From NCBI GenBank assembly GCA_951406725.2, contig OX597834.1:41478001-41542000 (forward strand): a stretch of 64,000 nt of DNA, read 5' to 3'. The position numbers and the translations under genes were made by a program. Below the pieces are notes generated by a model. That model was not told the DNA's origin. It did not search any database and saw only the letters and a list, made by a program, of their open reading frames with translations. Below, piece after piece: positions 4,962-51,679 of this stretch. Position 1 is the first letter of the stretch; each line of letters begins with the position of its first letter. This stretch comes from Octopus vulgaris. Its lineage: Eukaryota.

Positions 4962-5398
4962 ATGGATCGAGAAGAAATAAAAGCAAGAAAACCAGTGGGA
5001 CATGTGAGACGAAGAAGACCTTTCAGGAATGGCATTCGTATACCAGCTCCCATACAGCCAGCTCCAGTGTTCTTTCCCAAAGGAGTGATAGCAGAACATG
5101 GCCAAAAACAGGTTGCTGAAATGAAAAATAAGGGCGAAAAAGAAAAGAAAGAGATGCAAGCTTTAAATAGAAAACTTACCTCCTTTCTTCAAAATATACG
5201 TTACTTAGAAGCTGAAAACAAACATCTGAAAAATAACTTGAGTGCTGAGAAGGACTTTAAATGTGATAAAATCAAGATCTTATACGAAGATCGACTGAAG
5301 GAGTTGGAAAGACTTCTAAAAGACAAAGATGTGGAACTTGCAGCTACAAAGTCCAAAAATGAATCGCTTGAAGAAGAAGTTGAAGATTTGAAAGAACA
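4962..5398 (+). CDS. IF gene 1 exon 1: head, coil 1a, start of coil 1b
   Basis: MDREE...EKEKKEMQALNRKLTSFLQNIRYLEAENKHL (IF helix-initiation-like); donor CA|gtaagt, phase 2; paralogous to 32789-33240. Confidence 0.92.
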
Positions 5399-9747: not shown

Positions 9748-9934
9748 ATTAACACAAGTAAAGGACGAGAAAGACAGAGTGCAAGCGGAAATCGATGGAT
9801 TACACGATGAAGTTGCCCAACGCATTGCAGAGAGCGAAAACAACAGAAGGAGGGCAAGCGAACTTCAGAAGCAAGTTGATGACTTGAAGGCCAGAAATGG
9901 CATAGTGGTGAATCAACTGAGTAAACTTAGAGAG
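9748..9934 (+). CDS. IF gene 1 exon 2 (187 nt, long coil 1b)
   Basis: ctgtcag|A TTA ACA...; LTQVKDEKDRVQAEIDGLHDEVAQRIAESE...KLRE; GAG|gtacgt; same size and phase as 38790-38976. Confidence 0.92.
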
Positions 9935-10971: not shown

Positions 10972-11067
10972 GAACTAGAAATGGAAACTAGTGAGAGATT
11001 GGAATTAGCAGACTGTGCCGCGATGCTGGAAGACGAACTCTCTTTCAATTATGATATCCATGATGCC
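10972..11067 (+). CDS. IF gene 1 exon 3 (96 nt)
   Basis: tgtag|GAA; ELEMETSERLELADCAAMLEDELSFNYDIHDA; GCC|gtaatg; paralog 42839-42934. Confidence 0.9.
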
Positions 11068-13280: not shown

Positions 13281-13445
13281 GAGGTCAAGGAATTGAAGGC
13301 GATGATATCAAAATTGAAGAAGATACCCGATTTCGATGAAACACGGAAGACCGAAATTGGAAATTTAGTTGCTGATTTAAGCGCTCAGTATGAGGACAAG
13401 TTGAGAAAAGCTACTGCTGATATGGAAAGAAGATACGCGAAACAG
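13281..13445 (+). CDS. IF gene 1 exon 4 (165 nt, L12/coil 2 start)
   Basis: ttgcag|GAG; EVKELKAMISK...LSAQYEDK...RRYAKQ; CAG|gtaaag; paralog 43946-44110. Confidence 0.92.
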
Positions 13446-15708: not shown

Positions 15709-15804
15709 TTACAGTTAGAGAAGGCAAAAGCCAAGACCAAAGAAGATTTTATAGACCCAAGGAAGAGAAGAGATTTGGGTAAAATAAGCGAACTTGAAAC
15801 TCAG
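15709..15804 (+). CDS. IF gene 1 exon 5 (96 nt, divergent)
   Basis: ccatag|TTA; LQLEKAKAKTKEDFIDPRKRRDLGKISELETQ; CAG|gtaagg; flanks (ataattttattat upstream; gtaaggaa...tcaatc and (tcta)n downstream) match those of gene 2 exon 5. A second in-frame acceptor (acag, 6 nt downstream) is also possible. Confidence 0.8.
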
Positions 15805-17477: not shown

Positions 17478-17698
17478 ATAGCAGATATGAAACGTAAAAT
17501 TACTGAACTGGAATTTCAACGGGATGAGGCCGAAAACGGACGAGAATCCGACGCTGCGAGTTACGAGGACGAGATTGCTCGCTTGCGTAGAGACTTCGAG
17601 AATGTGTTCAAGGACTTCGAAGAGCTGGCAAATGCTAAGAACTTCGCAGGGATGAAGGTGGCATCAATGCTTGCACTACTTAAAGACGTAGATAGCAG
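17478..17698 (+). CDS. IF gene 1 exon 6 (221 nt, end of coil 2, degenerate termination motif)
   Basis: ttacag|ATA; IADMKRKITELEFQ...AKNFAGMKVASMLALLKDVDS; AG|gtaaat; same size and phase as 50000-50220 and 62272-62492. Confidence 0.92.
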
Positions 17699-18801: not shown

Positions 18802-19049
18802 TGAGAGTTCGAAACCGGTTGATGGACCTCAAACAGAAGGTGAGTCGGCACCTGGACCTCAAACAGAGGGTGAGTCGGCACCTGGACCTCAAACAAAAGG
18901 TGAGTCGGCACCTGGACATCAAACAGAAGGTGAGTCGGCACCTGGACCTCAAACAGAGGGTGAGTCGGCACCTGGACCTAAAACAGAAGGTGAGTCGGCA
19001 CCTGGACCTCAAACAAAAGTTGAGTCGGCACCTGGACATCAAACAAAAG
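18802..19049 (+). CDS. IF gene 1 exon 7 with in-frame GPQTEGESAP repeats; 3' end variable (18839+30k up to 19049, or GC donor after 19081)
   Basis: tttgcag|T GAG AGT; ESSKPVD(GPQTEGESAP)x8 VNALAA; homologous to gene 2 [14 protein letters not shown] and gene 3 GLQTESESAL. Confidence 0.78.
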
Positions 19050-19063: not shown

Positions 19064-19506
19064 GTGAACGCATTAGCAGCAGCGAGTTGCATTTGTCTTC
19101 ATCACTTCCTTCATAAAAGAATGCAACATATATACATACATACATACATACATACATACATACATACATACATACATACATACATACGTACGTACATACA
19201 TACATACATACATACGTACATACATACATACATACATACATACGTACATACATACATACATACATACATACATACATACATACGTACGTACATACATACA
19301 TACATACATACATACGTACATACATACATACATACATACATACGTACATACATACATACATACACACATACAAACATACATATAATACAAATAAGAAAAT
19401 GGAGAAACAAATTTGGTTTGTTCATCAACTTACGGATATTATATTGCTGGATTATTTATTCATGATATCTCATAGTGGGTTACACCCATAACCCCTACCT
19501 TACTTT

Positions 19507-21347: not shown

Positions 21348-21451
21348 AGAAAGAGACCATGAGCCGCCCTACAGAAGACTCTGTGAAAATCCTTGAAGTA
21401 GGACCCGATGGAAAATACATTCAACTTGAAGACCTTGCTGAGTTCCCAAAG
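21348..21451 (+). CDS. IF gene 1 exon 8 (104 nt, lamin-tail-like domain start)
   Basis: ttcag|AG AAA GAG; KETMSRPTEDSVKILEVGPDGKYIQLEDLAEFPK; AAG|gtaagt; paralog 54985-55088. Confidence 0.9.
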
Positions 21452-22383: not shown

Positions 22384-22494
22384 GGTGCAACAAACATGAA
22401 GAACTGGACATTGACGCAAACCCTTGACAATGGCAAGAGCCGCACCCATATATTTACCAATGGTAACGTGTTTGGTGCTAGCAAAATTGTCAAA
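22384..22494 (+). CDS. IF gene 1 exon 9 (111 nt, tail domain)
   Basis: cgtag|GGT; GATNMKNWTLTQTLDNGKSRTHIFTNGNVFGASKIVK; AAA|gtaagt. Confidence 0.9.
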
Positions 22495-24175: not shown

Positions 24176-24283
24176 ATTTGGGGATCAAAACACGGTGCTG
24201 GGCAAGATGGAATCACATCTTCTGAGGTCACTGAATGGGATACATCAAAATCGACAATTTCTTTGAAAGACAACGAAAATATG
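24176..24283 (+). CDS. IF gene 1 exon 10 (108 nt, tail domain)
   Basis: tttag|ATT TGG; IWGSKHGAGQDGITSSEVTEWDTSKSTISLKDNENM; ATG|gtaaga. Confidence 0.9.
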
Positions 24284-28206: not shown

Positions 28207-28230
28207 GAACATGATGTCCTTGTTAAATAA
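28207..28230 (+). CDS. IF gene 1 exon 11 coding part (EHDVLVK*)
   Basis: ttttcag|GAA; intron end and downstream UTR align with gene 2 58726 onward; no CaaX. Confidence 0.82.
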   Translation, partial: EHDVLVK

Positions 28231-32788: not shown

Positions 32789-33240
32789 ATGTCTGAAGCA
32801 AAACCACCAACAACAACATCAACAGTACCAAGACGAAAAGTTAGGAGGAACAGTATTCGTGTTCCATCTGGAGCTTCTATGGCAGCGTTTAATCAAAGAC
32901 CTCCATTAGTCTTGGCCGGAGGAGTCGCAGCATCAAGTTCTCAAAAACATGTTGCTGATATGAAAAACAGCAGAGAAAAAGAGAAGAAGGCAATGCAAGG
33001 TTTGAATTCAAAGCTTGCCAACCACCTTGAAACAAAACGTATGTTGGAGGCCGAAAACAAACATCTTAAGGAACTCTTAAATAAATCTAGGGTTGAGTTT
33101 AATATTGATAAAGTCAAGACCTCATACGAAGATCAGCTGCATGAAATGAAAGCACTCCTAGAAGACAAGGATAAGGAACTGGCAACTGTAAAGTCCCAAA
33201 ACGAATCGCTTGAAGAAGAAGTTGAAGATTTGAGCGAACA
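32789..33240 (+). CDS. IF gene 2 exon 1
   Basis: MSEAK...EKEKKAMQGLNSKLANHLETKRMLEAENKHL; CA|gtaagt, phase 2. Confidence 0.93.
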
Positions 33241-33608
33241 GTAAGTACAATTTGTTGTTAATGTTTGATTTTTGTTCTTCTTCATGTCGTTTAAAGCTTC
33301 TGCACATCATTAACATCCATCTTAAAAGTTTGGTCAATTCTCTCAATTAGACTACTATAATTACTTCTAATCCTTTTTCCTCACATTCTACGTAAAGTGA
33401 ATTTTCATATTCTAGTCAGGCATCAGATCTTAAAATTTTACGATTTGCAATACTTGAGATATAATTTTAGGCACGTAAATTTTGTTAGGTCTGTTTGTTT
33501 CAGAACAAATTTTCTTGGTCCATTTTCACATTATGTAAAAGAAAAGGCGATCTGGGGAGTTTTTCATTTTTGAAAATAATTTTGGTATAACTTGACATCT
33601 AGAGAATA

Positions 33609-35073
33609 CACTGAACCGTAAAAGAAACGCGATGTTTTCAAATGTTATTTTTATATGGTAAATTATGAAAATTCACTTCGGAGATGTAAGCGTAAATATT
33701 CCAAATATGGTAGTTTGTCGCTAAGACCCAAATTACAGGTAAACTTTCAATTTTCCCTGATACGAGAGGCCAAAGCGCAGCTGCGTTGAATACTGTAGAT
33801 CGCCGTCGCAAACAATTGTCATGGAAACCGAAATGCACCTGCATCTCGTGGAGTTTATGGTCATAAAAATTCAAATTGAACTGCGTTCCTGGCTTTCGTA
33901 ATTTGGACGCATCAGGAATGACCAGATTGTCAGAAGCGCAGAGAGAACAAGCTATCGGCCGATTGGAAGCAGGGCCGCATGCCCTGGTCCTTGCGAAAGC
34001 TTACAATATCCATGTCAGCACCGTCTATCGCCTGCACCAGCGATACAACAACAACACCAACGGCACTGCAGATCGTGCCCGCAGAGGGCGCCTCCAGGTG
34101 ACCACGCCCAGGCAGGACCACTTCGTCCAGCTGCAACATCTCCCTGATCGCGTCAGACCGGCCAGCATGACAGCACATGAGACCATAGGCACTGGACAGC
34201 GACCCATCAGCGAAGACACGGTAGGACGTCGAATGACTGCCAATAAACTGCGTGGCCGTCGTCCTGCTTGAGGGCCTGTCCTCACCGCCCGCGACCATCT
34301 GGCACGACTACAGTGAGCTACACAGCACCGATATTAGCGGCATCAACAATGGAGGTCGGTAGTCTTCTCTGACGAGTTCCTGTACTGCGTTTCCACCTCG
34401 GATGGCAGAGTGAGAGCGAGGCGTAGAAGGGGCGAACGCTATACAGACGCATATGTCATGGAAAGAGGCGCGTAGGGTGGGGATGCTATAAGCCTAAATC
34501 AGAGAATTGGGCCCCATGTGTTCCAAAATGTTGGTGTAGGCAGAGGGAATGGCCTCACAACGCAGCTCTTCGCTGACCAGATCCTAAGACCTTACATAGT
34601 GTCCTTCTACGTGCATCATCATAGCCACGTATCTCAGAAGGACAATGCTCCCTCCAATATGGCCAGGGTCACCATGGACGTCTTGCAGCAGAACCATGCC
34701 GTGGCCGGCTCTCAGCCCGGATTTGAGCCCAATTGAAGATCTGTGGGATGTAATTCAGAGATGGCTGTACCAGGTGGTCCCAAGGCCGACAGCTTGTATG
34801 GAACTGGAGGCAGCTTTCCTCAGGGTGTAGATACAGGTGCCAAAGGCTTTTGTGAACCGCCGCATGCACTTCATGTACCGACGGTGTATTGCCATTTTGA
34901 ATAACCAGGGAGGGCATACATGGTCTTGATCATGTCACACCCTACAATCTCAATGTGGTGGATCCGCCCACTACCAGAACACATGACCTAATCAGATTTA
35001 TCAAAACTTATCTCTGACATAATGAAATTAAAACATATTTCACAGTCACACACGTCTCTTTTGCGGCTCACTG
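33609..35073 (+). mobile_element. Tc1-like DNA transposon, near full length, with stops and frameshifts
   Basis: HTH MTRLSEAQREQAIGRLEAG..., WRSVVFSDE, QKDNAP, WPALSPDLSPIEDLW; imperfect TIR cactgaaccgtaaaagaaacg / cgtctcttttgcggctcactg with TA duplication; absent from gene 1 intron 1. Confidence 0.92.
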
Positions 35074-35528
35074 TATAGTTTCTTTGCGGTTCACTGCATA
35101 GTTGAGAGATACCCCACAAGGAAATATAAATAGGATTCAGCTAAATTGGCAATATCTAGATGAATAGTATCTGAGCTGTTAGGTCAGATATGCTTATCGA
35201 TACGGTTTAAGTTTAAATATGTTTATGATGCAATGACGTTTCTAGCCACCCTAGCTTTCATGTTCAGTACAAGTTTTGTGTAAACTGATTTCTTTATCAT
35301 GGGTCATTTCTTGTCAATGTGAAGCTATGATGGGAACCTAAGGTCCCATTAAATTTAGCTAAGCTTTCATTAACGCGACTTACTATTTTGACTTTCCAAA
35401 TTATTATCTCTACACTAATCCATTTCAGACATTAAAGAATTCAGTCTGTTTTAGATGCTTTAAATAATCTAACAACGAACTATGGTTGCTAATACTGTCC
35501 GCTAACAGTTGATATCTACTGCATAGGT

Positions 35529-35602
<74 letters not shown>

Positions 35603-36192
35603 TATATATATATATATTATTATTATTATGAGTTCAAATTCCGCTGAGGTCGACTTTGCCTTTCATCCTTTCGGGGTCGATAAATAAAGTACCAGTTACG
35701 CACTGAGGTCGATCTAATCGACTTAATCCCTTTGTCTGTCTTTGTTTGTCCCCTCTATGTTTAGCCCCTTGCGGGCAATAAAGAAATATATATTATTATT
35801 ATTATTTATGCGCCCTTTTCAAGCCAAGCCAAGCTCATGGGCCCAGTTTCCCAGTTTCTGTGGCTTATGCGTTCCTCGAGACGCCAGTACATCGCAGCGT
35901 TACCCCCACCCAAAACAGGAAGAAAGAGTGAGAGAAAGTTGGGGAGAAAGAATGCAACAGGGGCCGCCACCACCCCCTGCCGGAGCCTCATGTAGTTTTA
36001 GGTGTTTTCACTCAATAAACACACACAACGCCCGGTCTAGGAATCGAAACCGCGTTCCTCCGACTGCGAGTCCGCTGCCCTCACCACTGGGCCATTGCGC
36101 CTCCACAGTTTAATTAATATGAGATGTAAATTAAGATGAAGAACGCTCACCCAAAAGTAGAGGATCATCAAGGATTATACTATATTGTGTTT

Positions 36193-36523
36193 ACTATTTT
36201 ACTGTTTTACTTGTTTCAGTCATTTGACTGCGGCCATGCTGGAGCACCGCCTTTAGTCGAACAAATCGACCCCGGGACTTATTCTTTGTAAGCCCAGTAC
36301 TTATTCTATCGGTCTCTTTTGCCGAACCGCTAAGTAACTGGGACGTAAACACACCAGCAATGCTAGGGGGTCAAACACAGACACATAAACATACACACAC
36401 ATACATACATATATATATACATATATACAATGGGCTTCTTTCAGTTTCCGTCTACCAAATCCACTCACAAGGCTTTGGTCGGCCCGAGGCTATAGCAGAA
36501 GACACTTGCCCAAGATGCCACGC
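36193..36523 (-). mobile_element. SINE family A, head-truncated
   Basis: Aligns to family A. Confidence 0.82.
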
Positions 36524-37020
36524 AACCGACGGAGTGCTCCTATCTACTATTATGAGTATTTCCTCAACGGCTTGCCAGCATATATTTTTCTTTCCATATA
36601 TAAGATCATAAAAAATACTATGTTGACAACTCCAGTAGAAAGCACACATAGCTTTAATCCCCCTTCTTAACGTAAAATATCTGTTTAAAGTTAAGAGTGC
36701 TGCGTACAGGATGATTGCAGAAAAGGTGAAACAGAATTAGAATCTATGGCGTTCCGGTTGGTACTTTTCTGTGTAATTTTAATAATAGAATACCGAATAC
36801 TGTTATTAACTTTGGCGGTTGATACATGAAAGTACGCACGTAAATCGTTTTTTTTTTCTGCCTTTAACCCTCCAACTCGGAGTACAGGCCACTTATAATT
36901 GAATTCCATGTCGCATAATTTTTCGCTTCTGTACTTATACTCTGCCACGAATGTCCCCCTTTCTCCAGTTCCTTCTGTGTTGATCTACGCCATGAGTTCT
37001 TAAGCCTACCTCTCATTCTA

Positions 37021-37440
37021 TACTCCTTTACTCTTTACTCTTTTACTTGTTCCAGTCATTTGACTGCGGCCATGCTGGAGCACCACCTTTAATCGAGCAA
37101 ATCGACCCCGGGACTTATTCTTTGTAAGCCCAGTACTTATTCAATCGGGCTCTTTTGCCGAACCGCTAAGTGACGGGGACGTAAACACACCAGCATCGGT
37201 TGTCAAGCAATGCTAGGGGGACAAACACAGACACACAAACATATACACACACACTTATATATATATATATATACATACATATATACGACAGGCTTCTTTC
37301 AGTTTCCGTCTACCAAATCCACTCACAAGGCATTGGTCGGCCCGAGGCTATAGCAGAAGACACTTGCCCAAGATGCCACGCAGTGGGACTGAACCCGGAA
37401 CCATGTGGTTGGTTAGCAAGCTACTTACCACACAGCCACT
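37021..37440 (-). mobile_element. SINE family A
   Basis: Aligns to family A. Confidence 0.87.
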
Positions 37441-38191
37441 TCTATATCCATCCGGTTTCCACTTTAAAGCACTTTTCGCTACTTTTCTAATTGTGCTACC
37501 AATCCACTTTCACTTTTTCTTAAATATTTGCCCCTAATTTAAACTTGGTTTGTTCTTTGCCATAGCTCCATATTGCTTATGTGTTGGGGCCATCTAATTT
37601 TAAGTATACTACGCAAGCATCTGTTGATGAATGATTGTATTTGCTTATTTGACTTAACTGTTGTTCGCCATGTCTCAGCCCCTTACAATAACACACATAG
37701 CACACGAATATCGTTTGTTATGGGCGATGGAATTCCTATATCATCTGATTTCAGTCTACTGGATCTCATCGGGGGCAAGCGTCCGGTTTTGTGTCTGAGA
37801 AGATGCCGATATTCTATATTTCATGGCAATGAGATTTGACCGATATGCATTCACCGGACCCCTCCCACTGACGTAGTCTAGCAGGCTGAAATCACGTGAT
37901 ATGGCATTCTGTCGCCCATACAAACAATCTTCGTCTGCTACGATTTATATGTGTGCTTTTATGCACCAAGCGTCTATATGAGAGAATTTCTCAAGACTGG
38001 TAACTCAGCATTCGGTGTTCTGACAAGATACCCACATTAAGTTGGATATATAGATTGCCTTTTCGTACCAATACTGCTACTGTTCTAATGATTACTTTTT
38101 AGTAAGCCTGCTGGCTATTTGCAACATCACTGTATAAAGAAACGCTGATATTGTGCATAACGTGGTCACGGTATATGACTGGTATGCGGTC

Positions 38192-38428
38192 AAAGGTGGG
38201 GAGCTGGCAGAACCATTAACGTGCTGGGCGAAATGTTTAGTGGTATTTCGTCTGCCGCTACGTTCTGAGTTCAAATTCCGCCAAGGTCGACTTTGCCTTT
38301 CATCCTTTCAGGGTCGATAAATTAAGTACCAGTTACGCACTGGGGTCGATGTAATCGACTTAATCCCTTTGTCTGTCCTTGTTTATCTCCTCTGTGTCTA
38401 GCCCCTTGTGAGTAGTAAAGAAATAGGT
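38192..38428 (+). mobile_element. SINE family C
   Basis: Aligns to family C; ggtatg(c/t)ggtcaa repeated on the flanks. Confidence 0.85.
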
Positions 38429-38789
38429 ATGTGGTCAACGGACGCCGCCTGCAGACTAAATTCTTGTGGTATGAGAGTTCCAGCGCCCATAATAGGCGTT
38501 TTAGGTTTGCTATGATTTATGCGTATACTTTTATGCACCAAGAACTTATATGAGAGGATCTGTCAAAGCTAATAACGCAGTATTCGGTGTTTTAACAAAC
38601 CATCCACGTTAAGTTGGTTATAAAAATTGCTTCTGTTGCTAACAATTAATGTATAATATTGGTATATTGTAGTTAATATTTTGTTAACACATACATGTTT
38701 CAGTATTACCGTGGTTGCCAACCATACCAGTCCATACCGAACAAAAATAAATATTCTTTGGCAAAACAATTTCATTATTTTTCTGTTAG

Positions 38790-38976
38790 GTTGCGCCAAG
38801 TGCAGGACGAAAGAGACAGACTGCAAGCGGAAATCGATGGATTACACGATGAAGTTGCCCGCCGCATTGCAGACAGCGAAACCAGCAGAAGGAGGACAAG
38901 CGAATTGGAGAAGCAACTTGCTGACTGGAAGAAGAGATATGGCATTCTTGATGGTCAAATGGCCGAACTTAGAACG
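38790..38976 (+). CDS. IF gene 2 exon 2 (187 nt)
   Basis: gttag|G TTG; LRQVQDERDRLQAEIDGLHDEVARRIAD...ELRT; ACG|gtatgt. Confidence 0.93.
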
Positions 38977-39806
38977 GTATGTTGCACTACTTTGAATTCG
39001 TAATCTCTATCCTGCTCTCTTCTCTCTCTCTCTCTCTCTCTCTCTCCCGATTCTCTATAAACGCTCACATTCAAATATGGCACGCAAATACGTACATATA
39101 CAAATTCATGCACACACACACACACATACACAGTCACACCCACACCCACACACACACACGCACACACACACACACGCACACACACACACACGCACACATA
39201 TATATATATATACATATATGTGTGTGTATGCATGTTTGTAGGTATGTATATATGGATGGATAGATGAATGGATGACTGGAATACATCTATAACACTTGCG
39301 TTTGAAAAGCTCTAAATGGCGAAAGTGCTTACACACAATAAGAAAACTTCCTTTCAACATGTTCGTATCATTCTGCTTTTCTTTTCTAAGAATACATTTG
39401 CTTATATAAAATATATTCTTAATTTAACATGGTATTTCAACTAGTGGTGTGACTGTATCAAGAGCCCCTACCAATTTATATATATATATATATATCACGT
39501 CACGTGATATACATGTGACCGACCAGACCATCAGATGTTGCTACACATCGTTGGTCACAATGCGTTCGCATTGTTTTAGCCTTCAAATGACGCCACCCCG
39601 CTGGCTAAGCGAGCAGGCCAACAGAAGAAAGAGTGAGAGAAGGAGTGGTGAAAGAGTACAGTAGGGATCACCACCCCCTGCCGGAGCGTCATGGGGCTTT
39701 TAGGTGTTTTCGCTCAATAAACACACACAACGCCCGGTCTGGGAATCGAAACCGCGATCCTACGACCTCGAGTCCGCTGCCCTAACCACTGGGCCATTTC
39801 GCCTCC

Positions 39807-39871
<65 letters not shown>

Positions 39872-39888
39872 GTATGTTTGTATGTGTA

Positions 39889-39945
<57 letters not shown>

Positions 39946-41333
39946 GTATGTGTATATATGTATATATATACATACGTAAAAATTTAAATAAATGTGAAGG
40001 TGCCGGGGTTAGCGGTTAGGATATTCGGCTCACGATCGTAAGGTCGTGAGTTCAATTCCTGACGTTCTGATATTGAAGAAGGTACTTTATTTCACGTTGC
40101 TTCCGTTCAATCATCTGAGAAAAATGAGGTGTACATGAAATTGAAAAGACCAGAGTCGTCACATTCTTTTTGCGCTGAATCTCTCTGTGAACTACTTTAA
40201 GGGCAGGAGTGTTTGTCGAGTGATCAGCCACTTGACCGTTAATTTCACGAGCAGACCGTTCCTTTGATCAGATCAACTGGAACATACGTCGTTGTAACTG
40301 ATAGCATGCAAGCTATTTTGATCGATCACAAGGAAAATGGATGATATGACAGGTCTTGGGATCGTCTCGAGAAACTCAAAATTTGATCCCTCCAACGCTG
40401 CCTCGAGTGCCGTATCATTTCTTTGTGAGTATGTGGAAATAATTTCAAGAGCATTGCCCAAATGATGTTGGCATCAACATTAAAATTCACCCAGGGTTTG
40501 TTCCCCGTGCCATCCGTCCTCGACAAAAACCATGCTCACTCTACGTCACATCACTAAAGCAGAACAAGTGGCTCTGTTCTCTTTAAGATCATGCCAAGAA
40601 ACATCAGAGAAGAGAAAGATCTCATAACATTCAAATGACTCCTGAATGAATATCACCAACAAATTCCAGGTAAACCACCTACATCCAGATATATCTGTGC
40701 ACACAATAATATTTTACTCTGATGGGCTATCGTACCACGTTAATGGCTGTAATATGAAAAATCATTAAATGGCTTTTCCAGGTGGTGTCATTAAGTTAGG
40801 CATGGCCTGTGTCAATTCCAGAGCGAATTGTGTCACCTGGTGTATGACCCTCGGGTGTTCTTTAACAGTCAGTGTTATGTAGGGTACCTTCCCCAGATGC
40901 TATTCGGCAGCAAATTTGGCGTAACAACACAAGACGCATAATCTGTGTTTGTGCAATCGCTAGATATAAATATATATGCAAACACACACACTCACTCACT
41001 CTCTAACTCTCTTTCTCTCTCACACACACACATGCACACACACATGCGCGCACGCTCAAACACGCGTATGCATACATACTGCATGCACGCACACACACGC
41101 ACACACTCATGCACACACAAGCACACACGCGTTCACGTTTCTGTTTTACAAAGTGATGGGTCGATGGGATGAATATATTTTACAGAACACTAGTTAAATA
41201 AAAATGACACAAACAACAATGGCTAACATTCCTCGTCTTCTCTACGAGTGTAAACGTTGTGAATCACATAACAGATATGTTTTTAGGTCATACTAGCATC
41301 CCATTTTAAATTTCGTTTCTCACAGGTTGTTCG

Positions 41334-41570
41334 TTTCTTATTCCTTTATTGCCCACAAGGGGCTAAACATAGAGGGACAAACAAGGACAGACAAATGGAT
41401 TAAATCGATTATATCGACCCCAGTGCGTAACTGGTACATATTTAGTCGACCCCGAAAGGATGAAAGGCAAAGTCGACCTCGGCGGAATTTGAACTCAGGA
41501 CGTAACAGCAGACGAAATACCGCTAAGAATTTCACCCGGCGTGCTAACGTTTCTGCCAGCTCACCGCCTT
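41334..41570 (-). mobile_element. SINE family C
   Basis: Aligns to family C. Confidence 0.85.
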
Positions 41571-41649
41571 ATATATATATATAAAAAACCCTCTGTCACA
41601 AACTGTGCAGGAAAATAAATATGTTAGGAAAATGTGAAATCATTTTATT

Positions 41650-42062
41650 TCTTTCAGTCATTTGACTGTGGCCATGCTGGAGCACCGCCTATAGTCGAGC
41701 AAATCGACCCCAGAACTTATGCGTTGTAAGCCTACTATTTATTCTACCGGTCTCTTTTGCCGAACCGCTAAGTCACGAGGACGTAAACACACCAGCATAG
41801 GTTGTTAAGCGATGTCAAAAAAACAAACACAGACACACAAATATATACACATACATACATACATACATACATACATACATACATACATACATACATACGA
41901 CGGGCTCCTTTGAGTTTCCGTCTGCAAAATCCACTCACAAGGCCTTGGACGGCCCGAGACTATAGCAGAAGACACTTGCCCAAGGTGCCACGCAGTGGGA
42001 CTGAACCCGGAACCATATGGTTCGTAAGCAAGCTACTTACCACACAGCCACTCCTGCGCCTA
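41650..42062 (-). mobile_element. SINE family A
   Basis: Aligns to family A. Confidence 0.85.
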
Positions 42063-42293
42063 TATACTGAAACTAATGCGCAAATATACATACCACTATT
42101 GAAAAGTAAAATAACAACGCTTGGAGAATATATCAAACATACTATTCTCCCAATATTGTCAATATTCACATTGATAAATTAGGAAAAATTCTGAAAACCT
42201 TATTGCCATCTATTATAATCATTGTGTAATTAAACTCTGGCGATACTAAAACGTAGGTTTCAAAGGAATGCATAATCCTCTGGCAATGGATAG

Positions 42294-42676
42294 AAGCACT
42301 CCGTCGGTTTCGACGATGAGGGTTCCGGTTGATCCGAATCAACGGAACAGCCCGCTCGTGAAATTAACGTGTAAGTGGCTGAGTACTCCACAGACACGTG
42401 TACCCTTAACGTAGTTCTCGGGGATATTCAGCGTGACACAGACAGTGACAAGGCCGGCCCCTTGAAATACAGGTACAACAGAAACAGGAAGTAAGAGTGA
42501 GAGAAAGTTGTGGTGAAAGAGTACAGCAGGGATCACCACCATCCCCTGCCGGAGCCCCGTGGAGCTTTGTAGGTGTTTTCGCTCAATAAACACTCACAAC
42601 GCCCGGTCTGGGAATCGAAACCGCGATCCTATGATCGCGAGTCCGCTGCCTTAACCACTGGGCAATTGCGCCTCCA
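42294..42676 (-). mobile_element. SINE family B
   Basis: Aligns to family B; tcctctggcaat on both flanks. Confidence 0.87.
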
Positions 42677-42838
42677 CTCCTCTGGCAATATCGTGTGTGA
42701 GACGACGGAAAAGTTTTTTCTGAACGAAATTCACTTCCCTTATTTTCATACTTTATCTTCCATCTTGGACCAATCAGTGGTGTTTATCTAAAAACATATT
42801 TTATTTAAATAATCTATAACATTATTTTTTTTCTCAAG

Positions 42839-42934
42839 AACTTACGAACCGAAACTTCTCAAAGACTGGAATTAGAAAACCGTCTGGCGATGCTGGAAGA
42901 AGAACTTGCTTTCCTCAACGACGTCCATAGTGCC
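42839..42934 (+). CDS. IF gene 2 exon 3 (96 nt)
   Basis: ctcaag|AAC; NLRTETSQRLELENRLAMLEEELAFLNDVHSA (typical IF LxEELxF); GCC|gtaatg. Confidence 0.92.
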
Positions 42935-43228
42935 GTAATGTTGCTTTTATTTTTTTTTTTTCTGATATATTTTCTTTTGCAGGGGAATTGCCATGTCGTT
43001 TTTAGTTATTTTCTCTAATAAATTCTTCATGATGTTTTAAGTCTTTTTTTTAAGTCTTTCTTACATCAGGTAGATTCACTTTGGCAATTACAGGTAAAGA
43101 ATTACCTGTCAAGTGATCAATTTCAGTTATCTTACTAAGTTCGTAGACTACGAACCACAGTATCGGTCGCTCCTAACCCGACTTTGAATCTGCAGTCATC
43201 TAAGGCTTTAGTAACTTATCTATAACTT

Positions 43229-43562
43229 GAAGGCGCATGGCTCAGTGGTTAGAGCGTCGAGCTTACGATCGTGAGGTTGTGAGCTCGAATCCTGGACCGG
43301 GCTGCGTGTTGTGTTCTTGAGCAAGACACTTTATTTCACGTTGCTCCAGTTCACTCAGCTGGAGAAATGAGTTGCGACGTCACAGGTGCCAAGTTGTATC
43401 GGCCCTTTTACCTTTCCCTTGGATAAGACTGGTGGCATGGAGAAGGGAGGCTGGTATGCATGGGCGACTGCTGGTCTTCCATAAAACAACCTCGCCCGGA
43501 CTTGTGACTAGGAGGGTAACTTTCTAGGTGCAATCCCATGGTCAGTGTCGTGACCGAAGGGG
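43229..43562 (+). mobile_element. tRNA-derived SINE, family D
   Basis: gaaggcgcatggctcagtggttagagc...gagctcgaatcc head; second copy at 48934-49279. Confidence 0.85.
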
Positions 43563-43945
43563 ATCCCGGATAACTAGAATACTTATCTGTCAAATGACCC
43601 ATTGCACATATCTCTTCTTCTATAACAATGGACAGACATCACTAATCGCTCTAAGAAGCAATGGTACTACTTTCACTAATTTATTGTGCCGAGTTTAACT
43701 TCCTCCGAACACTGTTCGGAACTTGGCGGGAGAATATACTTTGTTGATGGCAGTCTGCGCTGGTGTCGATAGAATATATACCTGCAATTTACTATCACCA
43801 ATTCTTTATGCACATTTGTCCATTTCTCGTTTTAAAAGCTATGGCATTTCTTTGTTTAAAAGCTATGACATCTTGTCAATTAAAACTAATATTAGCTTCC
43901 GTACTTTCATTTTACTTACCGGTTTGTTTTAATTTCTAATTGCAG

Positions 43946-44110
43946 GAGATCAAAGAATATAAGGCAATTGTATCAAAAACACAGAAGTTACCTGACTTCC
44001 AAGATTCCTGGAAGGCTGAAGTTGGAAATATAGTTTCTGATTTAAGTGCCGAATATGAGTCTCAGTTGCAGACAATTACTGCTGCGATGGAAAGCCGACA
44101 TGCGGATGAG
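43946..44110 (+). CDS. IF gene 2 exon 4 (165 nt)
   Basis: ttgcag|GAG; EIKEYKAIVSK...DLSAEYESQ...RHADE; GAG|gtaaac. Confidence 0.92.
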
Positions 44111-44308
44111 GTAAACAATTACCTAGAAAAAAACCCCAAAACACAGAAACAAATTTATTTGCATGCTTTAAAATTGGTGGAAAATTAACCTCATAAATTG
44201 TGTTTGTTCTGTTGCTAGATTAGTCGTTCGAAAATATGATCTCATCGAAGATGTAATCGATCTTACATTCTATTGTCGCGTTGAGTAGTTACAGTCAGAC
44301 TATACATA

Positions 44309-44524
44309 TACTCTTTTACTCTTTTACTTGTTTCAGTCATTTGACTGCGGCCATGCTGGAGCACCGCCTTTAGTCGAGCAAATCGACCCCGGGACTTATT
44401 CTTTTTTGTAAGCCCAGTACTTATTCTATCGGTTCCTCTTTTGCCGAACCGCTAAGTGACGGGGACGTAAACACACCAGCATCGGGTGTCAAGCAATGCT
44501 AGGGGGACAAACACAGACACACAA

Positions 44525-44575
<51 letters not shown>

Positions 44576-44723
44576 TACGACGGGCTTCTTACAGTTTCCG
44601 TCTACCAAATCCACTCACAAGGCATTGGTCGGCCCGGGGCTATAGCAGAAGACACTTGCCCACGATGTCACGCAGTGGGACTGAACCCTGAACCATGTGG
44701 TTGGTTAGCAAGCTACTTACCAC
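44309..44723 (-). mobile_element. SINE family A
   Basis: Aligns to family A. Confidence 0.86.
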
Positions 44724-44989
44724 ATGTTTATATACATTTTCAAATAACATCAATCACGTTGTTGAGAGGTCATATGCTTAGCAATTAAGATTCGATTTGT
44801 TTTGAAGTGTGACTTGTGATTTCCCTCTTATTTTTTTTATTTATGTATTCATTATTTTACGGTTTGCCCTCATTATTTTTACATAAAAATTTAAAAAAAA
44901 AAAATATGGTTCTTTATTTAGAAAATACTAGATTATTTTAGCAATTTCTCTTCTCGAATGCCAGAAGCATGATACTTGAAATTTGTTTA

Positions 44990-45387
44990 TACTCTTTTAC
45001 TTACTTGTTTCAGTCATTTTGACTGCGGCCATGCTGGAGCACCGCCTTTAGTCGAGCAACTCGACCCCGGGACTTATTCTTTGTAAGCCCAGTACTTATT
45101 CTATCGGTCTCTTTTGCCGAACCGCTAAGTGACGGGGACGTAAACACACCAGCATCGGTTGTCAAGCAATGATAGGGGGACAAACACAGACACACAAACA
45201 CATACATATACATATATATATACGACAGGCTTCTTTCAGTTTCCGTCTACCAAATCCACTCACAAGGCATTGGTCGGCCCGGGGCTATAGCAGAAGACAC
45301 TTGCCCAAGATGCCACGCAGTGGGACTGAACCCGGAACCATGTGGTTGGTTAGCAAGCTACTTACCACACAGCCACTCCTGCGCCTA
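44990..45387 (-). mobile_element. SINE family A
   Basis: Aligns to family A. Confidence 0.88.
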
Positions 45388-45771
45388 TGGTTCACTTTCT
45401 CGATTAAATCAAAAAAGCAAGTTTTCTATAATCTATTACCATCTAAAAAAAAAGGCCCAGAACACCATTTTATAGTCATCGATATGCAATGAATTTCATC
45501 CAGCAGCGGCGAAATAAAATGTAGCTTGGTTCAAAAGTTATGTATACCATCTCCCATCCAGTCAGAAATATATCACAGTCATATGATGAAAACGAGTTCG
45601 ATCCCACCTATGATACATTAGGCCACTCTCTTTTACCATGGGTTCGATTTAACCACCGCTTTGTGAGTAGAATTTACTAGGTGGAAATTTTTACGAAAGC
45701 CTGTCAAATAAGTACAGGCAGAAATACGTACGTTCCTATGTATAGACGTAGGTAGTAATTCCGTGCATATG

Positions 45772-46315
45772 TACGAGGTCTGATCAATAACTATCAGGAT
45801 TGTTGCCATAGTAACGAAGCTAAAGGACGCAGAGTAAAGCCCGCTTGGCACAGGTTGACCTTATTCTCTGTTGAGCATAAGTACGAAGTTTTAACGTTCT
45901 AGCTCACATCCTTTGTTTACGGCAGTGCTTGGTAGGAAGATGTGTAGTGTGTGATTGTCGCATTGACCATGGCAGAGAAAGTTGTCATGGAGATACCTGG
46001 TCAGAGACACTCGTAAAGTTGCACAAAATGTATGGAGCGGAGTGGTTCAGACATTTCCAGGAGGGCCTTAAAACACCGGAGATGTGTGTGCAGCCGTGGG
46101 CGGAAAACTTCGAAACACCATCCGTGAGTTATTAGATGTGCATATCTGTTACGGTTCAGTCCATTATTACTGAAGATTTAGGTATGACGCATGTGTCTGT
46201 CAAGTTTGTACCAAAACTGCTTTCAGCTGACCAAAAAGATACTGGGGTTTCAGTTGCACAAGTTCTCCTTGATTGTATCCAGAGCGATGAAAACCTTTTG
46301 AAAACATTGTAACAG
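45772..46315 (+). mobile_element. Degenerate mariner fragment
   Basis: TA|CGAGGTCTGATCAATAA start; remnant ITEDLGMTHVSVKFVPKLLSADQK. Confidence 0.7.
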
Positions 46316-46695
46316 CGTAATCAAAAAACAGGATAGCCATGTCTTCAGGTGTGTACATAATGCTTCAGTTTCCCCCCGGCAAGGTGTGTGCATTACACGT
46401 CAATTGAATACACGTAAATGTGTTAAGATGCGCTAATTATCAGTGGAATCCATTGTGTAGATCACACTGTAGCCCTCCTTTCGGCTGGGATGGACGAGCA
46501 GTTTCACTTTGGTCGCTAGGGTAAAAGAAGTTGTATATAGAGCGGAGAAAGAGAGGCCAGTTTTAATGCCAAGGTTTTAATGATCGGTTCTGTGAACAAC
46601 GCAGCGATTTCTAATTTTTTCCCATATGATGTCCTCTCAGCATTGGAATTTGAGCAAAGAAAATTTAATAATAATAATTCTTATTATATCAACAG

Positions 46696-46827
46696 ATACA
46701 GAAATTGAAAGCAGGCGTGAGGACCATCCCAGGTGGAGCATCTCCAGCTGGCAGGGTCGGTGTAAGTGGAGGATTGGATATGCGTTCACGTACGGACGTA
46801 AGCGCTATGAGGGAATATGAATCTACG
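46696..46827 (+). CDS. IF gene 2 exon 5 (132 nt, Gly/Pro-rich)
   Basis: caacag|ATA; IQKLKAGVRTIPGGASPAGRVGVSGGLDMRSRTDVSAMREYEST; ACG|gtaagg; phase 0/0 fits exons 4 and 6. Confidence 0.82.
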
Positions 46828-46869
46828 GTAAGGAATATTACATAAATTATTCAATCAATCAATCAGTCA

Positions 46870-46940
<71 letters not shown>

Positions 46941-46960
46941 CCCCCCCTCTATCTCTCTCT

Positions 46961-47004
<44 letters not shown>

Positions 47005-47124
47005 CTTGCGTCTAACGTCTGATCTCTGACTTCTGGCCAAAATCAGACCGCCATGTTGAATCGTTAGCTCCTGCACGCACTTTTTTTTTTCTCCTTGTTT
47101 CTCTCCGTGTTTCTTTTCTGTGTA

Positions 47125-47162
47125 TCTTTCTGTCGAAGAGCGTAGGCTCGAAACGTAAAAGA
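47125..47162 (+). ncRNA. Minimal hammerhead-like motif
   Basis: tcttt-CTGTCGAA-gagc-gtag-gctc-GAAA-cg-TA-aaaga; related copies at 60551-60585(-) and 62860-62895(-). Confidence 0.5.
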
Positions 47163-47459
47163 CTTGTTTTATTTCTATTCCTGAGCGCCATACTAATACA
47201 ATTGTTTGTTTGTACTCCACCTGCCTTCGTCTTTTGTTTATTTTCGTAAAGCTTCCCGTTATATATATATGTGTGTGTGTATAATATATCAACCTATCTA
47301 TAAAATGGAATGTATTTTAGTTTTTACGAATGTGTGAATATGTAGGGTGTGTAAGATATTTGAGAACAGATTTATGTTTATAAAAAAACCCCAGATATAT
47401 AATAACAGAGGATAACTTAATTTATCAAAAAATTGTATGATGATAAAAATAAACCGTGT

Positions 47460-47910
47460 TTTCTATAATGTTATTCAATAAAGCCACCTTCAGCTTCAAC
47501 AACTGCTTTTATATGAGAACTAATCATCTACATGCTCGAAACAAGTGGTCCTGGTTCATTTTGGACATTAATCCAGCAATGCCATCCTTCAAAGTGTCTT
47601 TGGTGTTATGGGCGTGTTCATCAACCTATCTCTCAACAACGCTCCACAAGTAATAATCCAATAGATTGAAATCTGGGGAATTAGGAGGACAAATGTTAGG
47701 GGTTATGTGATCAAGAAAATTTTCATCCACCCATTCCTATGGTGGTAGAGCCATGTGTGATAGTGCAGAGTCTTACTGAAACACGTATGGTCTTCTATTG
47801 CGTACACTGTCTATCGAGGGCTTAGTTATTTCCAGGACTTCAATGTGGGCGGCAGAGTTAACTTTAAGGCATTGTGGAAAGAAGTAAGGAGGCATCACAT
47901 GTCCTTCATG
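47460..47910 (-). mobile_element. Degenerate Tc1/mariner-superfamily transposase fragment
   Basis: Minus strand reads CPPNSPDFNLLDY. Confidence 0.65.
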
Positions 47911-48247
47911 TCCATGAGGTCAATTGCTCTACGAATGATAGCATAAGGGGCTGATCCTTACCTAGTTCAGATACCAGGAAACCCCAGAATGGAAGAAATT
48001 CAAAAGACAGTGTTCATGGGAACTGCCCATATCCTACATAAAATACTGCCTATGTAATCTCAAATTTTAAAACAAACTCATCATGTTCTTAAGTTTTGTT
48101 AAACATTCTTTAGAACTATACTTTGTGCAGAACCAAATATATAACACCCTAAGCATAACACCAACATAAATGTCTAACTTGCTATCGCTTGAGGTCTCTG
48201 GGTAATACTTGGGGCCAACTTGTATAAATACAAAGTTAAATTCAAAC

Positions 48248-48282
<35 letters not shown>

Positions 48283-48933
48283 GTTTCAAATTTTTCCACA
48301 AGGGCTACAGTTTTGAGGAAGGGGTGAATCGATTACATCGACCCCAGTGTTCAACTGGTACTTATTTTATCGACCACGAAAAGATGAATGGCAATGTCGA
48401 CCCCGGCGGAATTTGAACTCGGAACGTAGCGACGTCCAGCGCGCTTACAATAGCACACCGCCTTAATTATAATAATTATAATAAATAATGCCCTGATGCA
48501 GTACCAGGCAGTGGTTGTCATGGCTTCTGATCTTAACTGATTGGAAGTGTTAGCATGTACATTGTTTTGTCTTGATATAAAAGATGGGCTATAGCAAATA
48601 TTCTGCTCAATACCACAGATTCGCTTGTCAGTTGTTTGACCTTAACCAGTTGAGCATGTCCCTTAGTGGCTGACGATATGTACAGAAGTAGCGGGGGAGC
48701 ATCATAGCCATGTGTTGAGAGAAAATGATAAACCACACATAGCAATGAAAGACAAAGAAAAGCGAAATTGCTTACTGATTGATCCGTTTTGTACATTTTA
48801 TTCCAGGATTGTAAAGAAAGCAGAGAAAAAATTACAATCCCTTAAAAATTCAAATTGCAAGAATTTGCAGAATGAAAGTTGTAAAGTTTGTTCCATTAAT
48901 AATTTTAGTATTAGTAACTGTAAACAGTGAATG

Positions 48934-49279
48934 TGAAGGCGCATGGCTCAGTGGTTAGAGCGTCGAGCTTACGATCGTGAGGTTGTGAGCTCGAATCCCG
49001 GACCGGGCTGCGTGTTGTGTTCTTGAGCAAAGCACTTTATTTCACGTTGCTCCAGTTCACTCAGCTGTAGAAATGAGTTGCGACGTCACTGGTGCCAAGC
49101 TGTAACGGCCCCTTTGCCTTTCCCTTGGATAACATTGGTGGTGGGGAGAGGGGAGGCTGGTATGCATGGGCGACTGCTGGTCTTCCATAAAACAACCTTG
49201 CCCGGACTTGTGTCTAGGAGGGTAACTTTCTAGGTGCAATCCCATGGTCATTCATGACCGAAGGGGGTCTTTACCCTTT
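48934..49279 (+). mobile_element. SINE family D
   Basis: Aligns to 43229-43562; taaacagtga on both flanks. Confidence 0.85.
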
Positions 49280-49538
49280 AAACAGTGATATAGAGAAATG
49301 GTTGAAGGGGACTGGAATAGAATGCCCTGTAGAGCTTCTACAGAGCGAGACTAAAGAGATTATGAGAAAGGTGCTGAGCACTAGAAACTATTGAAAGTTT
49401 GTGTATGTCTAAGGTAACAGCTAGTAACAAGCTAAGCACACAAATTTTATCTGGAATAAGAATGATGAAGGTGTTGTTGATGATGATGATGATGATAGTA
49501 TATAGGATTAAGATTTATGTTTTGATACTTTTTTTTAA

Positions 49539-49750
49539 TACTCTTTTTTACTTGTTTCAGTCATTTGACTGCGGCCATGCTGGAGCACCGCCTTTTTTTT
49601 TTAGTCGAGCAAATCGACCCCGGGACTTATTCTTTGTAAGCCCAGTACTTATTCTATCGGTCTCTTTTGCCGAACCGCTAAGTGACGGGGACGTAAACAC
49701 ACCAGCATCGGTTGTCAAGCAATGCTAGGGGGACAAACACACATACACAA

Positions 49751-49793
<43 letters not shown>

Positions 49794-49960
49794 TACGACA
49801 GGCTTCCTTCAGTTTCCGTCTACCAAATCCACTCACAAGGCATTGGTCGGCCCGGGGCTATAGTAGAAGACACTTGCCCAAGATGCCACGCAGTGGGACT
49901 GAACCCGGAACCATGTGGTTGGTTAGCAAGCTACTTACCACACAGCCACTCCTGCGCCTA
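49539..49960 (-). mobile_element. SINE family A
   Basis: Aligns to family A; ends 40 nt before exon 6. Confidence 0.88.
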
Positions 49961-49999
49961 TAATATTTAATAATTGTATTTTTTATCTTGTCTTTATAG

Positions 50000-50220
50000 A
50001 TATCAAGTCTGAAAAGTAAAATAAGGGATCTAGAATTTCAATTGCAAGAGTCCCTAAAAAACAACGCATCTGAAGATGCGGCGCACAGAGCCGAAATTGA
50101 TCAGTTACGTGCGGAAATGGAATCAATGTTGAAGGAATTACACGACCTTATGGATGCTAAACTCTCACTGGAATTGGAAATTGCCGCCTATCGCAAACTC
50201 CTTGACGGAGAAGAGAACAG
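50000..50220 (+). CDS. IF gene 2 exon 6 (221 nt, IF helix-termination motif)
   Basis: ttatag|ATA; ...LMDAKLSLELEIAAYRKLLDGEENR; AG|gtaaat. Confidence 0.96.
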
Positions 50221-50279
50221 GTAAATAATAGATGTTTCACTTAAAATAACATTGTAAATTCTTTCCGTCTTTTTATATA

Positions 50280-50509
50280 TTTCTTTACTACCCACAAGGG
50301 GCTAAACACAGAGAGGATAAACAAGGACAGACAAAGGGATTAAGACGATTACATCAATCCCAGTGCGAAACTGGTACTTTATTTATCGACCCTGAAAGGA
50401 TGAAAGGCAAAGTCGACCTCGGCGGAATTTGAACTCAGAACATAACGACAGACGATATACCGCTAAGCATTTCGCCCGGCGCGCTAACGTTTCTGCCAGC
50501 TCGCCGCCT
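50280..50509 (-). mobile_element. SINE family C
   Basis: Aligns to family C; tttccgtctttttata on both flanks. Confidence 0.86.
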
Positions 50510-50966
50510 TTTTCCGTCTTTTTATAGGTTCTCATCTGCTAATCTGGAGTCGCAGAGACACTGTTGGGACATTCGGCATAAGGAATGTGGAAGAATTGGT
50601 GCTCCAGCTCCAAACACAGATGAAAGAAAAGAGAGAAAGGATGAGAGAAGGAGAGAATGTGTGAGAGGAAGAAGGGGAGATAATAAAGTAGCGGTGATCC
50701 CAAAACGAAGGTGTGCGTGTGTTTGTATAAGAGAGTATGTATGTGCGTGTGGAAGAGGGCTGGTGACCTTGACGTGTGCGTGTGTGCATGTGTAGGTGTG
50801 TGGATGAGGGGCTTGGAAGTGGTAAGCGCTAGTGTGTGCGTGGTGGTGTGATGTGGTGTGGTGTTGTGTGGTATAGTGGTGTGTTGGGTATATATGTTAT
50901 ATTGTATATATATATGTATATGTATGTGTATATGTATATATATATGTATATATATATATATGTATA

Positions 50967-51028
<62 letters not shown>

Positions 51029-51179
51029 GTATATATATATATGTATATATATATATGTATATATATATATGTATATATATATGTATATATATATGTATAT
51101 ATATGTATGTATATGTATATATATATATGTGTATATATATATATGTATATATATATGTATATATATGTATATATATGTT

Positions 51180-51274
<95 letters not shown>

Positions 51275-51409
51275 AAGCGCAATGGTCCAATGGTTAGGAC
51301 AGCGGTCTCGCGGTTTCGATTCTAAGACCGGGCGTTGTGTTTTCATTATATTTTCCTATTCATCTACAATGTTTATTAACATTTTATTAAATATATTCTA
51401 CTTTTACAG

Positions 51410-51492
51410 AATTAGTTCAGCTCTTAGCAGCTTTGGTGGATTTCAAACAGAGGGTGAGTCTGCTCTCGCGAACGCACTATCTCTACCTGGAA
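51410..51492 (+). CDS. IF gene 2 exon 7 (83 nt; alternative in-frame donor after 51453)
   Basis: ttacag|A ATT; [27 protein letters not shown]; GGA A|gtgagt, phase 1; paralog 63884-63963. Confidence 0.85.
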
Positions 51493-51551
51493 GTGAGTGG
51501 CATTTGGTTTCTTCAGCACTTTTTTCATCAAAAATTAAAACAGATATTCTC

Positions 51552-51679
<128 letters not shown>

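Follow-up and report, generated by a model that had tools for sequence, protein, structure and literature searches.

The intermediate filament gene cluster

The window, by which we mean the whole 64,000-nucleotide stretch of Octopus vulgaris DNA that was analysed (G000:C21:41478001-41542000), lies in a tandem cluster of at least eleven intermediate filament (IF) genes; feature positions are counted within the window unless prefixed G000:C21. Examination of 378 kb around the window gave eleven copies of IF exon 6 between 41.358 and 41.738 Mb, designated A, B, Bp, C, gene 1, gene 2, 'gene 3', G, H (on the minus strand), I, and J. The gene of primary interest here, gene 1, comprises eleven open exons on the plus strand, from 4962 to 28230, with AG/GT ends throughout. 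Spliced together, these exons match letter for letter the 598-residue O. vulgaris protein P0010, annotated as '70 kDa neurofilament ifa-1-like', and an earlier reading of the sequence alone was therefore right that all eleven exons are open. The O. sinensis ortholog is P0001, an independent gene model.

Exon 1 (4962..5398) encodes the head, coil 1A, and the start of coil 1B, and is supported by the splice match to P0010 and by the peptide IPAPIQPAPVFFPK. Coil 1B continues in the 187-nt exon 2 (9748..9934) and ends in exon 3 (10972..11067), while exon 4 (13281..13445) contains the linker and the start of coil 2, all three being placed by the same splice match. Exon 5 (15709..15804) encodes 32 residues, versus 42 in the conserved members A, I, and J. 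Exon 6 (17478..17698) encodes coil 2B and is the site of the motif loss, and exon 7 (18802..19049), for which peptides have been found, encodes an acidic, proline-rich spacer of 83 residues. Exons 8 (21348..21451), 9 (22384..22494), and 10 (24176..24283) make up the predicted lamin tail domain, on the basis of the splice match and Foldseek, together with a peptide in the case of exon 10. Exon 11 (28207..28230), again matched to P0010, supplies a coding part and the stop, without a CaaX box. Intronic fragments at 25642-26568 (minus strand) and at approximately 52700-54000 (plus strand) lie among many short dispersed repeat copies; by eye they look GIY-YIG-like and reverse-transcriptase-like, and are presumably retroelement-derived.

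Gene 1 descends from the IF type with a long coil 1B and a lamin tail, and one defining feature of that type is gone. The Pfam Filament family (PF00038) matched residues 60-377 of the protein with 89.7 bits (cut-off 40). The long coil 1B is present, with residues 60-307 aligning with residues 34-286 of lamin A with short gaps only. The coil 1A pattern is LNRKL..L..IR.LE.EN, so that the helix-initiation motif LNxR reads LNRK; the lysine, which replaces the usual arginine here as elsewhere in the subclade, is common to B, C, 2, and G, while A, I, and J have LNER. The tail is predicted to fold as a lamin tail domain, its best Foldseek matches being lamin tail structures (lamin B1 Ig fold, E 6.5e-8); the Pfam LTD family did not reach E 0.1 on P0010. 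Cephalopod lamins have been described with an aromatic C-terminal end of the QQKKGWLFW type (PMC10125929). Neither this end nor a CaaX box, the two nuclear-lamin ends looked for, is present in the gene 1 protein, the C-terminus of which is HDVLVK, and no signal peptide is apparent at its N-terminus. Because the helix-termination motif is missing, gene 1 is treated here as a variant, IF-derived gene and is not classed among the standard filament-forming IFs.

Gene 2 (32789..58761, plus strand) is a complete 11-exon paralog with a canonical motif and with its exon 6 at 50000-50220. The sequence-only reading had taken both gene 2 and 'gene 3' to be canonical. The motif is indeed present in both, but what the window holds of 'gene 3' (62272..63963, plus strand) is exons 6 (62272-62492) and 7 (63884-63963) only, or exons 6-10 when the next locus is included. 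Exons 2-5 were not found before it in the assembly, and a gap of 100 N lies at 60148..60247. The 3' half of 'gene 3' differs from its O. sinensis ortholog, P0006, at 4 of 210 residues, and the exon-5 end seen in the X5 and X9 contigs (see below) had 0 matches in the genome. The gap probably conceals the 5' half of 'gene 3' along with one or more additional paralogs, among them one of the P0005 type, which is represented in the X5 and X9 contigs. The possibility that 'gene 3' is an alternative 3' cassette of gene 2 was discarded, since its O. sinensis ortholog has a 5' half of its own and the contig exon-5 end is missing from the assembly.

The motif is eroded elsewhere in the cluster, in G (11-14/20 residues) and in H (7-9/20), and in Bp the motif region reads SMKLQIAHYRKLLDVGEK in an exon 6 that is shorter by 42 nt. 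Gene Bp (G000:C21:41423889-41437301) is strongly diverged, with exons shortened in frame, an exon 6 minus two heptads, and open tail exons. Its exon 1 was not found; as it has its own exons 2-5, the idea that Bp is an orphan 3' cassette was rejected. Gene H (G000:C21:41590091-41580900, minus strand) is inverted and almost headless, with the eroded motif RIEDEIDRYRSILDRAE. Its six rod exons are each stop-free, and a stop a few codons past exon 6 leaves it apparently tailless; no lamin-tail exons of gene H were found. The O. vulgaris annotation P0004 combines exon 1 of gene B with exons 2-11 of gene C (G000:C21:41394276 and 41453006), through either the merging of near-identical paralogs in the annotation or read-through splicing. 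Exon 5 in the young subclade (window 46696-46827; genes B, C, and 1) encodes 32-44 residues, versus 42, and is Gly/Pro-rich in gene 2. The 'canonical' neighbours are themselves unusual, because the models break coil 2 at exon 5; in addition, Lys replaces the Arg of LNxR in all of them.

In a tree of 16 octopus rod sequences, from which Bp, H, and 'gene 3' were excluded as incomplete, gene 1 was sister to the B/C group (100/99) on a long stem, with about 50% identity to the B/C paralogs. The B/C group includes an O. bimaculoides protein; the gene 1 duplication therefore predates that species split. A search of limited reach found no orthologs beyond O. sinensis (1 of 2424 candidates and 0 of 50 shorter ones), and a second one, likewise of limited reach, gave two matches among 1.84 billion representatives, namely the O. 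sinensis ortholog and one canonical paralog. A structure atlas returned generic Filament clusters only. In the literature covered, which leaves subscription journals mostly outside, no account of gene 1 or of the cluster was found beyond names in proteome lists.

Loss of the rod-end motif

IF proteins carry their most conserved signature in the motif at the end of the rod, which is also a hotspot for mutations that cause human disease. In gene 1, exon 6 has 221 nt, a length common to 10 of the 11 exon-6 copies of the cluster, and is preceded by AG and followed by GT, with phase 0 in and phase 2 out. The exon ends in KNFAGMKVASMLALLKDVDS in gene 1, in KLSLELEIAAYRKLLDGEEN in gene 2, and in KLSLELEIAAYRKLLEGEEG in 'gene 3'. 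In its last 20 codons (codons 54-73, residues 381-400; 17637..17696, plus strand), where the helix-termination motif formerly lay, 4/20 residues are kept, in comparison to 17-20/20 among the seven canonical copies, and the net charge is +1 versus -2. This bears out the proposal, made from the sequence alone, that the motif was lost while exon size, frame, and splice sites were kept. The accompanying hand count of 23/74 identities to gene 2 was also accurate, as 23 of the 73 whole codons are identical and the split codon differs (Ser vs Arg). Taken by itself, the gene 1 exon did not match Pfam Filament at E 0.1, in contrast to the 55-57 bits obtained for the paralog exons. The loss is not a sequencing error, since O. 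sinensis P0001 also lacks the motif.

The further statement that the loss involved no indel or stop holds for net length and for the open frame. However, a gapped alignment (+2, -1, -1) over codons 54-59 (17637..17654, plus strand) outscores the ungapped alignment; if only point changes had occurred, P would be 0.02-0.13 across 18 combinations of scoring, partner, and start. This alignment is suggestive only, and half of the gene 1 motif may have been lost to a short compensated frameshift; the candidate site coincides with a predicted helix break at residues 381-386. Using heptad labels that follow what we take to be the vimentin register, the coil-2B core was found to be hydrophobic at 10 of 11 positions (P 0.008-0.017 under neutral change), or at 11 of 11 when Ala was counted as hydrophobic (P 0.001-0.004). 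Inside the motif itself the retention was 3 of 4 (P 0.25) and not significant, and the notion of a hydrophobic seam preserved there was rejected. The new rod end is not conserved, with 4 of the 23 protein differences between O. vulgaris and O. sinensis falling within these 20 residues (P 0.006).

Splicing, protein evidence, and the exon 7 spacer

The joint of exons 6 and 7 (17698->18802, GT..AG) was found in contigs of X2 and X5 (organism A) and of X9 (organism B), that is, in three studies and 3 of 4 runs, with at least 53 letters on the shorter side. The runs are RNA by guess only, so spliced joints alone were used as evidence; the joint itself is the predicted splice. Over exon 6, the X2 and X5 contigs showed 0 differences from gene 1, and the X9 contig showed 5, all of them residue-changing. 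A contig of X13 (organism C, 1331 nt) matches 17475-17600 with 20 differences and then departs from gene 1; of these, 13 are listed, 7 of them silent, and the other 7 are unlisted. Absent from four records on the canonical exon, this contig gives a weak hint of a third version of the rod end. Canonical exon-6 contigs are present in X5 and X9. Contig depth was 15-33 for gene 1 and up to thousands for canonical copies, values that are unsuitable for ranking genes.

The protein has been detected in O. vulgaris skin mucus, where Table S1 of PMC10138644 lists at least five high-confidence spectra for the accession of the ortholog, all in file F7. The peptides cover the head, coil 1A, the exon 6-7 junction, the repeat, and the tail, with XCorr values of 5.37 for the junction peptide, 6.87 for the repeat peptide, and 5.32 for the tail peptide; one of the five carries the O. 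sinensis residue (PMC10138644). The junction peptide starts with DVDS, the residues standing in for the GEE end. Five further exon-6 peptides of gene 1 were not among the matches listed (1 of 6 terms matched), and neither was a canonical motif peptide (PMC10138644). Both this table and this spectrum file also contain peptides of canonical paralogs (PMC10138644). Accessions were counted at least 10 times for the gene 1 ortholog and at least 68 and at least 94 times for two paralogs, with none among the matches listed for the B ortholog (PMC10138644); because peptides are shared and rows repeat accessions, these counts give no more than a hint that gene 1 has a minor share. The skin-mucus evidence does not show the cell type of the gene 1 protein. 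Actin, tubulin, and canonical IFs are also found in the mucus, so shed cells probably account for its presence there. An 'ifa-1-like' protein, matched to gene 1 by name alone, was reported as more abundant in senescent animals, in two of the four specimens followed (PMC11431876). Splicing and peptides together establish that gene 1 is a live, divergent IF paralog, not a young pseudogene.

The spacer encoded by exon 7 has a net charge of -9; repetition of a 30-bp unit expanded it from about 28 to 83 residues. This unit is present in 8.1 copies (18823-19064), seven of which carry an in-phase GTGAGT donor. The ancestral exon-7 donor (19082..19087, plus strand) reads GT(A/G)AGT in five paralogs and GCGAGT in gene 1, with GC for GT, where it would also lie out of phase. 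The spacers of the three O. sinensis isoforms measure 73, 63, and 33 residues, differ by whole units, and end at donor-bearing units. The exon-7 donors may be used in a regulated way.

Structure predictions

In the monomer model of gene 1, helices extend over residues 43-380 and are followed by the break at 381-386, with pLDDT below 50 at 383-392. The canonical control P0006 was modelled with a single helix (368-414) straight through the motif, a result favoured by its alignment, in which 8 of 10 rows were canonical. A homodimer model of residues 315-404 scored 0.54, versus 0.01 for the best of three controls, with in-register pairing, at least 71% contact agreement between runs, pLDDT of at least 71, and confident contacts at 317-378; solved IF coils may drive this pass, the motif lies at the fragment end, and residues outside the named contacts are to be read as uncertain, not as apart. 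When the dimer score was calibrated on microbes, 21 of 30 solved pairs attained the mark, against 0 of 23 single chains; on eukaryotes, 17 of 29 pairs (7 of 16 in animals) and 0 of 30 single chains did so, as did 1 of 7 eukaryotic pairs without an older solved relative. Coil 2 of gene 1 is thus predicted to pair as a parallel two-chain coil up to about residue 378, and the last 20 residues of the rod are predicted to be frayed. The sequence-only reading had offered an obligate heteropolymer partner as one option for gene 1; at the dimer level such a partner would not be needed, as coil 2 is predicted to pair with itself.

Substitution rates and selection

A three-way count on the gene-1 branch gave a motif dN of 0.78, versus a gene-wide dS of 0.22. 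Gene conversion among paralogs could shrink dS. In our own codon model (six genes, 414 codons), the motif, a region chosen for its visible divergence, had an ω of 4.6 on the gene-1 branch versus 0.18 elsewhere (p 4e-5 against 1), and an ω of 3.4 (p 0.01) with a free local synonymous rate. With codons 54-59 dropped, the corresponding values were 3.6 (p 0.002) and 2.76 (p 0.053). For the same branch, ω came to 2.0 in exon 6 outside the motif, 0.86 over the remainder of the rod, and 0.79 over the tail. For exon 6 as a whole it was 2.5 (p 0.0009), or 1.8 (p 0.07) with the local rate, and outside exon 6 it was 0.88, not different from 1 (p 0.58), versus 0.56 elsewhere. The young subclade has a high background ω overall (0.5-0.8). 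In neutral simulations some 20-codon window reached 16 changes in 3% of runs at a distance of 0.23 and in 43% at 0.335; an open frame was retained in 0 of 2000.

Because ω outside exon 6 is near 1, relaxed constraint is a real rival to selection for a new function. A dN/dS near 1 with no expression had been put forward from the sequence alone as the mark of a young pseudogene; the ω of 0.88 outside exon 6 goes in that direction, but expression is present. What is borne out of that reading is a live, divergent IF paralog with fast change focused on exon 6; its neofunctionalisation is a conjecture, weakened by the same value elsewhere in the gene.

Possible functions of gene 1

The role of the rod-end motif, in lateral packing versus elongation, is known mostly from engineered truncations. 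Keratins cut at R/KLLEGE were reported to elongate but to fail in lateral alignment (PMC2289655), and rod-end mutations of vimentin can perturb assembly (PMC2119649). Point mutants in the GFAP motif disturbed annealing and lateral integrity in a dominant manner (PMC9635275). The likeliest role for gene 1 is that of a minor co-assembling subunit, because the protein keeps coil 1, the greater part of coil 2, and the tail, the rod end is predicted to be frayed, and an acidic spacer has been added. Our tentative preference, which we hold to have close to an even chance of being correct, is that gene 1 is a spliced, translated paralog whose product co-assembles as a minor subunit with its canonical neighbours in skin cells, loosening or widening lateral packing and not stopping growth. 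The protein would still pair through the remaining rod and would join the filaments of the canonical neighbours as a minor share. There, the frayed rod end and the acidic repeat might loosen or widen side-by-side packing, with the repeat acting as a spacer whose length could be set by choice among the seven splice donors. As the GFAP motif mutants act dominantly, such co-assembly could be harmful rather than useful.

A close second, though in our view less likely than not, is that gene 1 is a redundant duplicate under relaxed constraint, expressed via inherited regulatory DNA and tolerated at a low level while its rod end drifts with no new function. The ω of 0.88 outside exon 6 and the subclade background of 0.5-0.8 speak for this reading; a motif region that varies both between and within close species, the possible compensated frameshift, and two other cluster genes with an eroded motif are consistent with it as well. 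However, the frame has stayed open since before organism C and, judging from the tree, O. bimaculoides branched off, an outcome reached in 0 of 2000 simulations under neutrality. The coil-2B core has also been kept, silent changes make up 7 of the 13 differences listed for organism C, ω exceeds 1 in exon 6 (2.5, p 0.0009; 1.8, p 0.07 with the local rate), and the protein is detected.

A more ambitious version of the co-assembling subunit, which we regard as speculative and improbable, would have octopuses, under positive selection, turning several copies of a keratin-like IF cluster into motif-less modifiers. Gene 1 would then be a skin subunit whose splice-tuned acidic spacer softens a deformable skin cytoskeleton, in parallel to the subunits of beaded filaments and to the side-arm subunits of neurofilaments.

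Less probable again is a non-filamentous derivative, in which soluble or shed dimers or tetramers use the tail and acidic repeat for a new interaction and the rod end has been positively selected to escape co-assembly. The focus of ω above 1 on exon 6, the charge reversal at the rod end, the predicted helix break, the new 83-residue spacer, and the presence in mucus can all be read in this way. However, canonical IFs, actin, and tubulin share the mucus, likely through shed cells, no signal peptide is apparent, and the protein keeps coil 1, on which tetramer formation depends in other IFs.

The chain terminator raised in the sequence-only reading fared worst of its three options, and we give it little chance. 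Such a cap would add via the intact coil-1A end, block end-to-end growth, and so set filament length. A coil 1A end that is kept beside a coil 2B end that is lost would suit it. However, the building blocks of IFs are antiparallel and many-chained, and a minor subunit would therefore not close a whole end. Some GFAP motif mutants do block annealing (PMC9635275), but keratins cut at the motif still elongate (PMC2289655). Finally, a pseudogene, or an artefact of sequencing, assembly, or annotation, for which a branch ω near 1 and the assembly gap in the same window might be cited, can be set aside with near certainty in view of spliced contigs from two studies with 0 exon-6 differences, the O. 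sinensis gene model, and the junction peptide.

Comparison with known systems

Gene 1 resembles the protostome cytoplasmic IFs (squid NF60/NF70, Helix IF-A/B type) in having a Filament rod, a coil 1 collinear with that of lamin A, and a lamin-tail fold, without a CaaX box; with its canonical cluster neighbours it shares the 11-exon layout and the phases. It differs from the protostome proteins in that the motif is kept at 4/20 residues, exon 5 is ten residues shorter than in the conserved members, and an 83-residue acidic repeat lies between rod and tail. Gene 1 is a natural, expressed protein without the motif and with the rest kept, encoded beside canonical paralogs of about 50% identity, and so amounts to a ready-made experiment; G, Bp, H, and gene 1 together form a graded series of eroded copies.

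The 'omega-crystallin' AAA16613.1 of Enteroctopus dofleini is presumably the lens-specific IF of Tomarev et al. 1993. Skin-mucus peptides of gene I (G000:C21:41609531-41652829) map to transcripts labelled with this name, which is the best-match label on those transcripts and also on a fragment with the gene 1 tail peptide (PMC10138644). An IF protein has been listed as omega-crystallin (PMC3594755), and the lens IF may belong to this cluster. Gene I, which bears the label, has the canonical motif, in contrast to gene 1, for which no link to the lens was found.

Like gene 1, isomin and the nematode IFC-type proteins are invertebrate IFs with a poorly conserved motif. Isomin, from the springtail gut, was reported to form filaments with a poorly conserved YRKLLEGEE, and IFs without the canonical end sequence were already known (PMC3065449). 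Isomin differs in lacking a lamin tail domain, in its altered coil 1A, and in that its filaments have been shown, whereas gene 1 has the tail domain and is known from sequence and peptides. That IFs with a degraded motif are known already limits the surprise of gene 1, although the loss in gene 1 is more complete than that in filensin.

Another parallel is with the lens beaded filaments of filensin (BFSP1) and phakinin (BFSP2), which are likewise IF proteins with altered end motifs and an extended tail. The motif of filensin reads RYHRIIE(I/N)EG (PMC10626283), and filensin co-assembles with its partner (PMC2199861). Filensin keeps more of the motif than gene 1, which has no Tyr, no basic residue after it, and no EG. 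Gene 1 is not orthologous to BFSP1 or BFSP2, as it nests among octopus paralogs (in an octopus-only tree) and has a lamin tail domain; moreover, BFSP1 and BFSP2 are lens proteins, while the protein evidence for gene 1 comes from skin mucus. The analogy with beaded filaments suggested from the sequence alone therefore holds in kind, but not in tissue or in the extent of motif loss. If the co-assembling subunit is the correct reading, gene 1 would work as filensin does in beaded filaments, though from outside that family.
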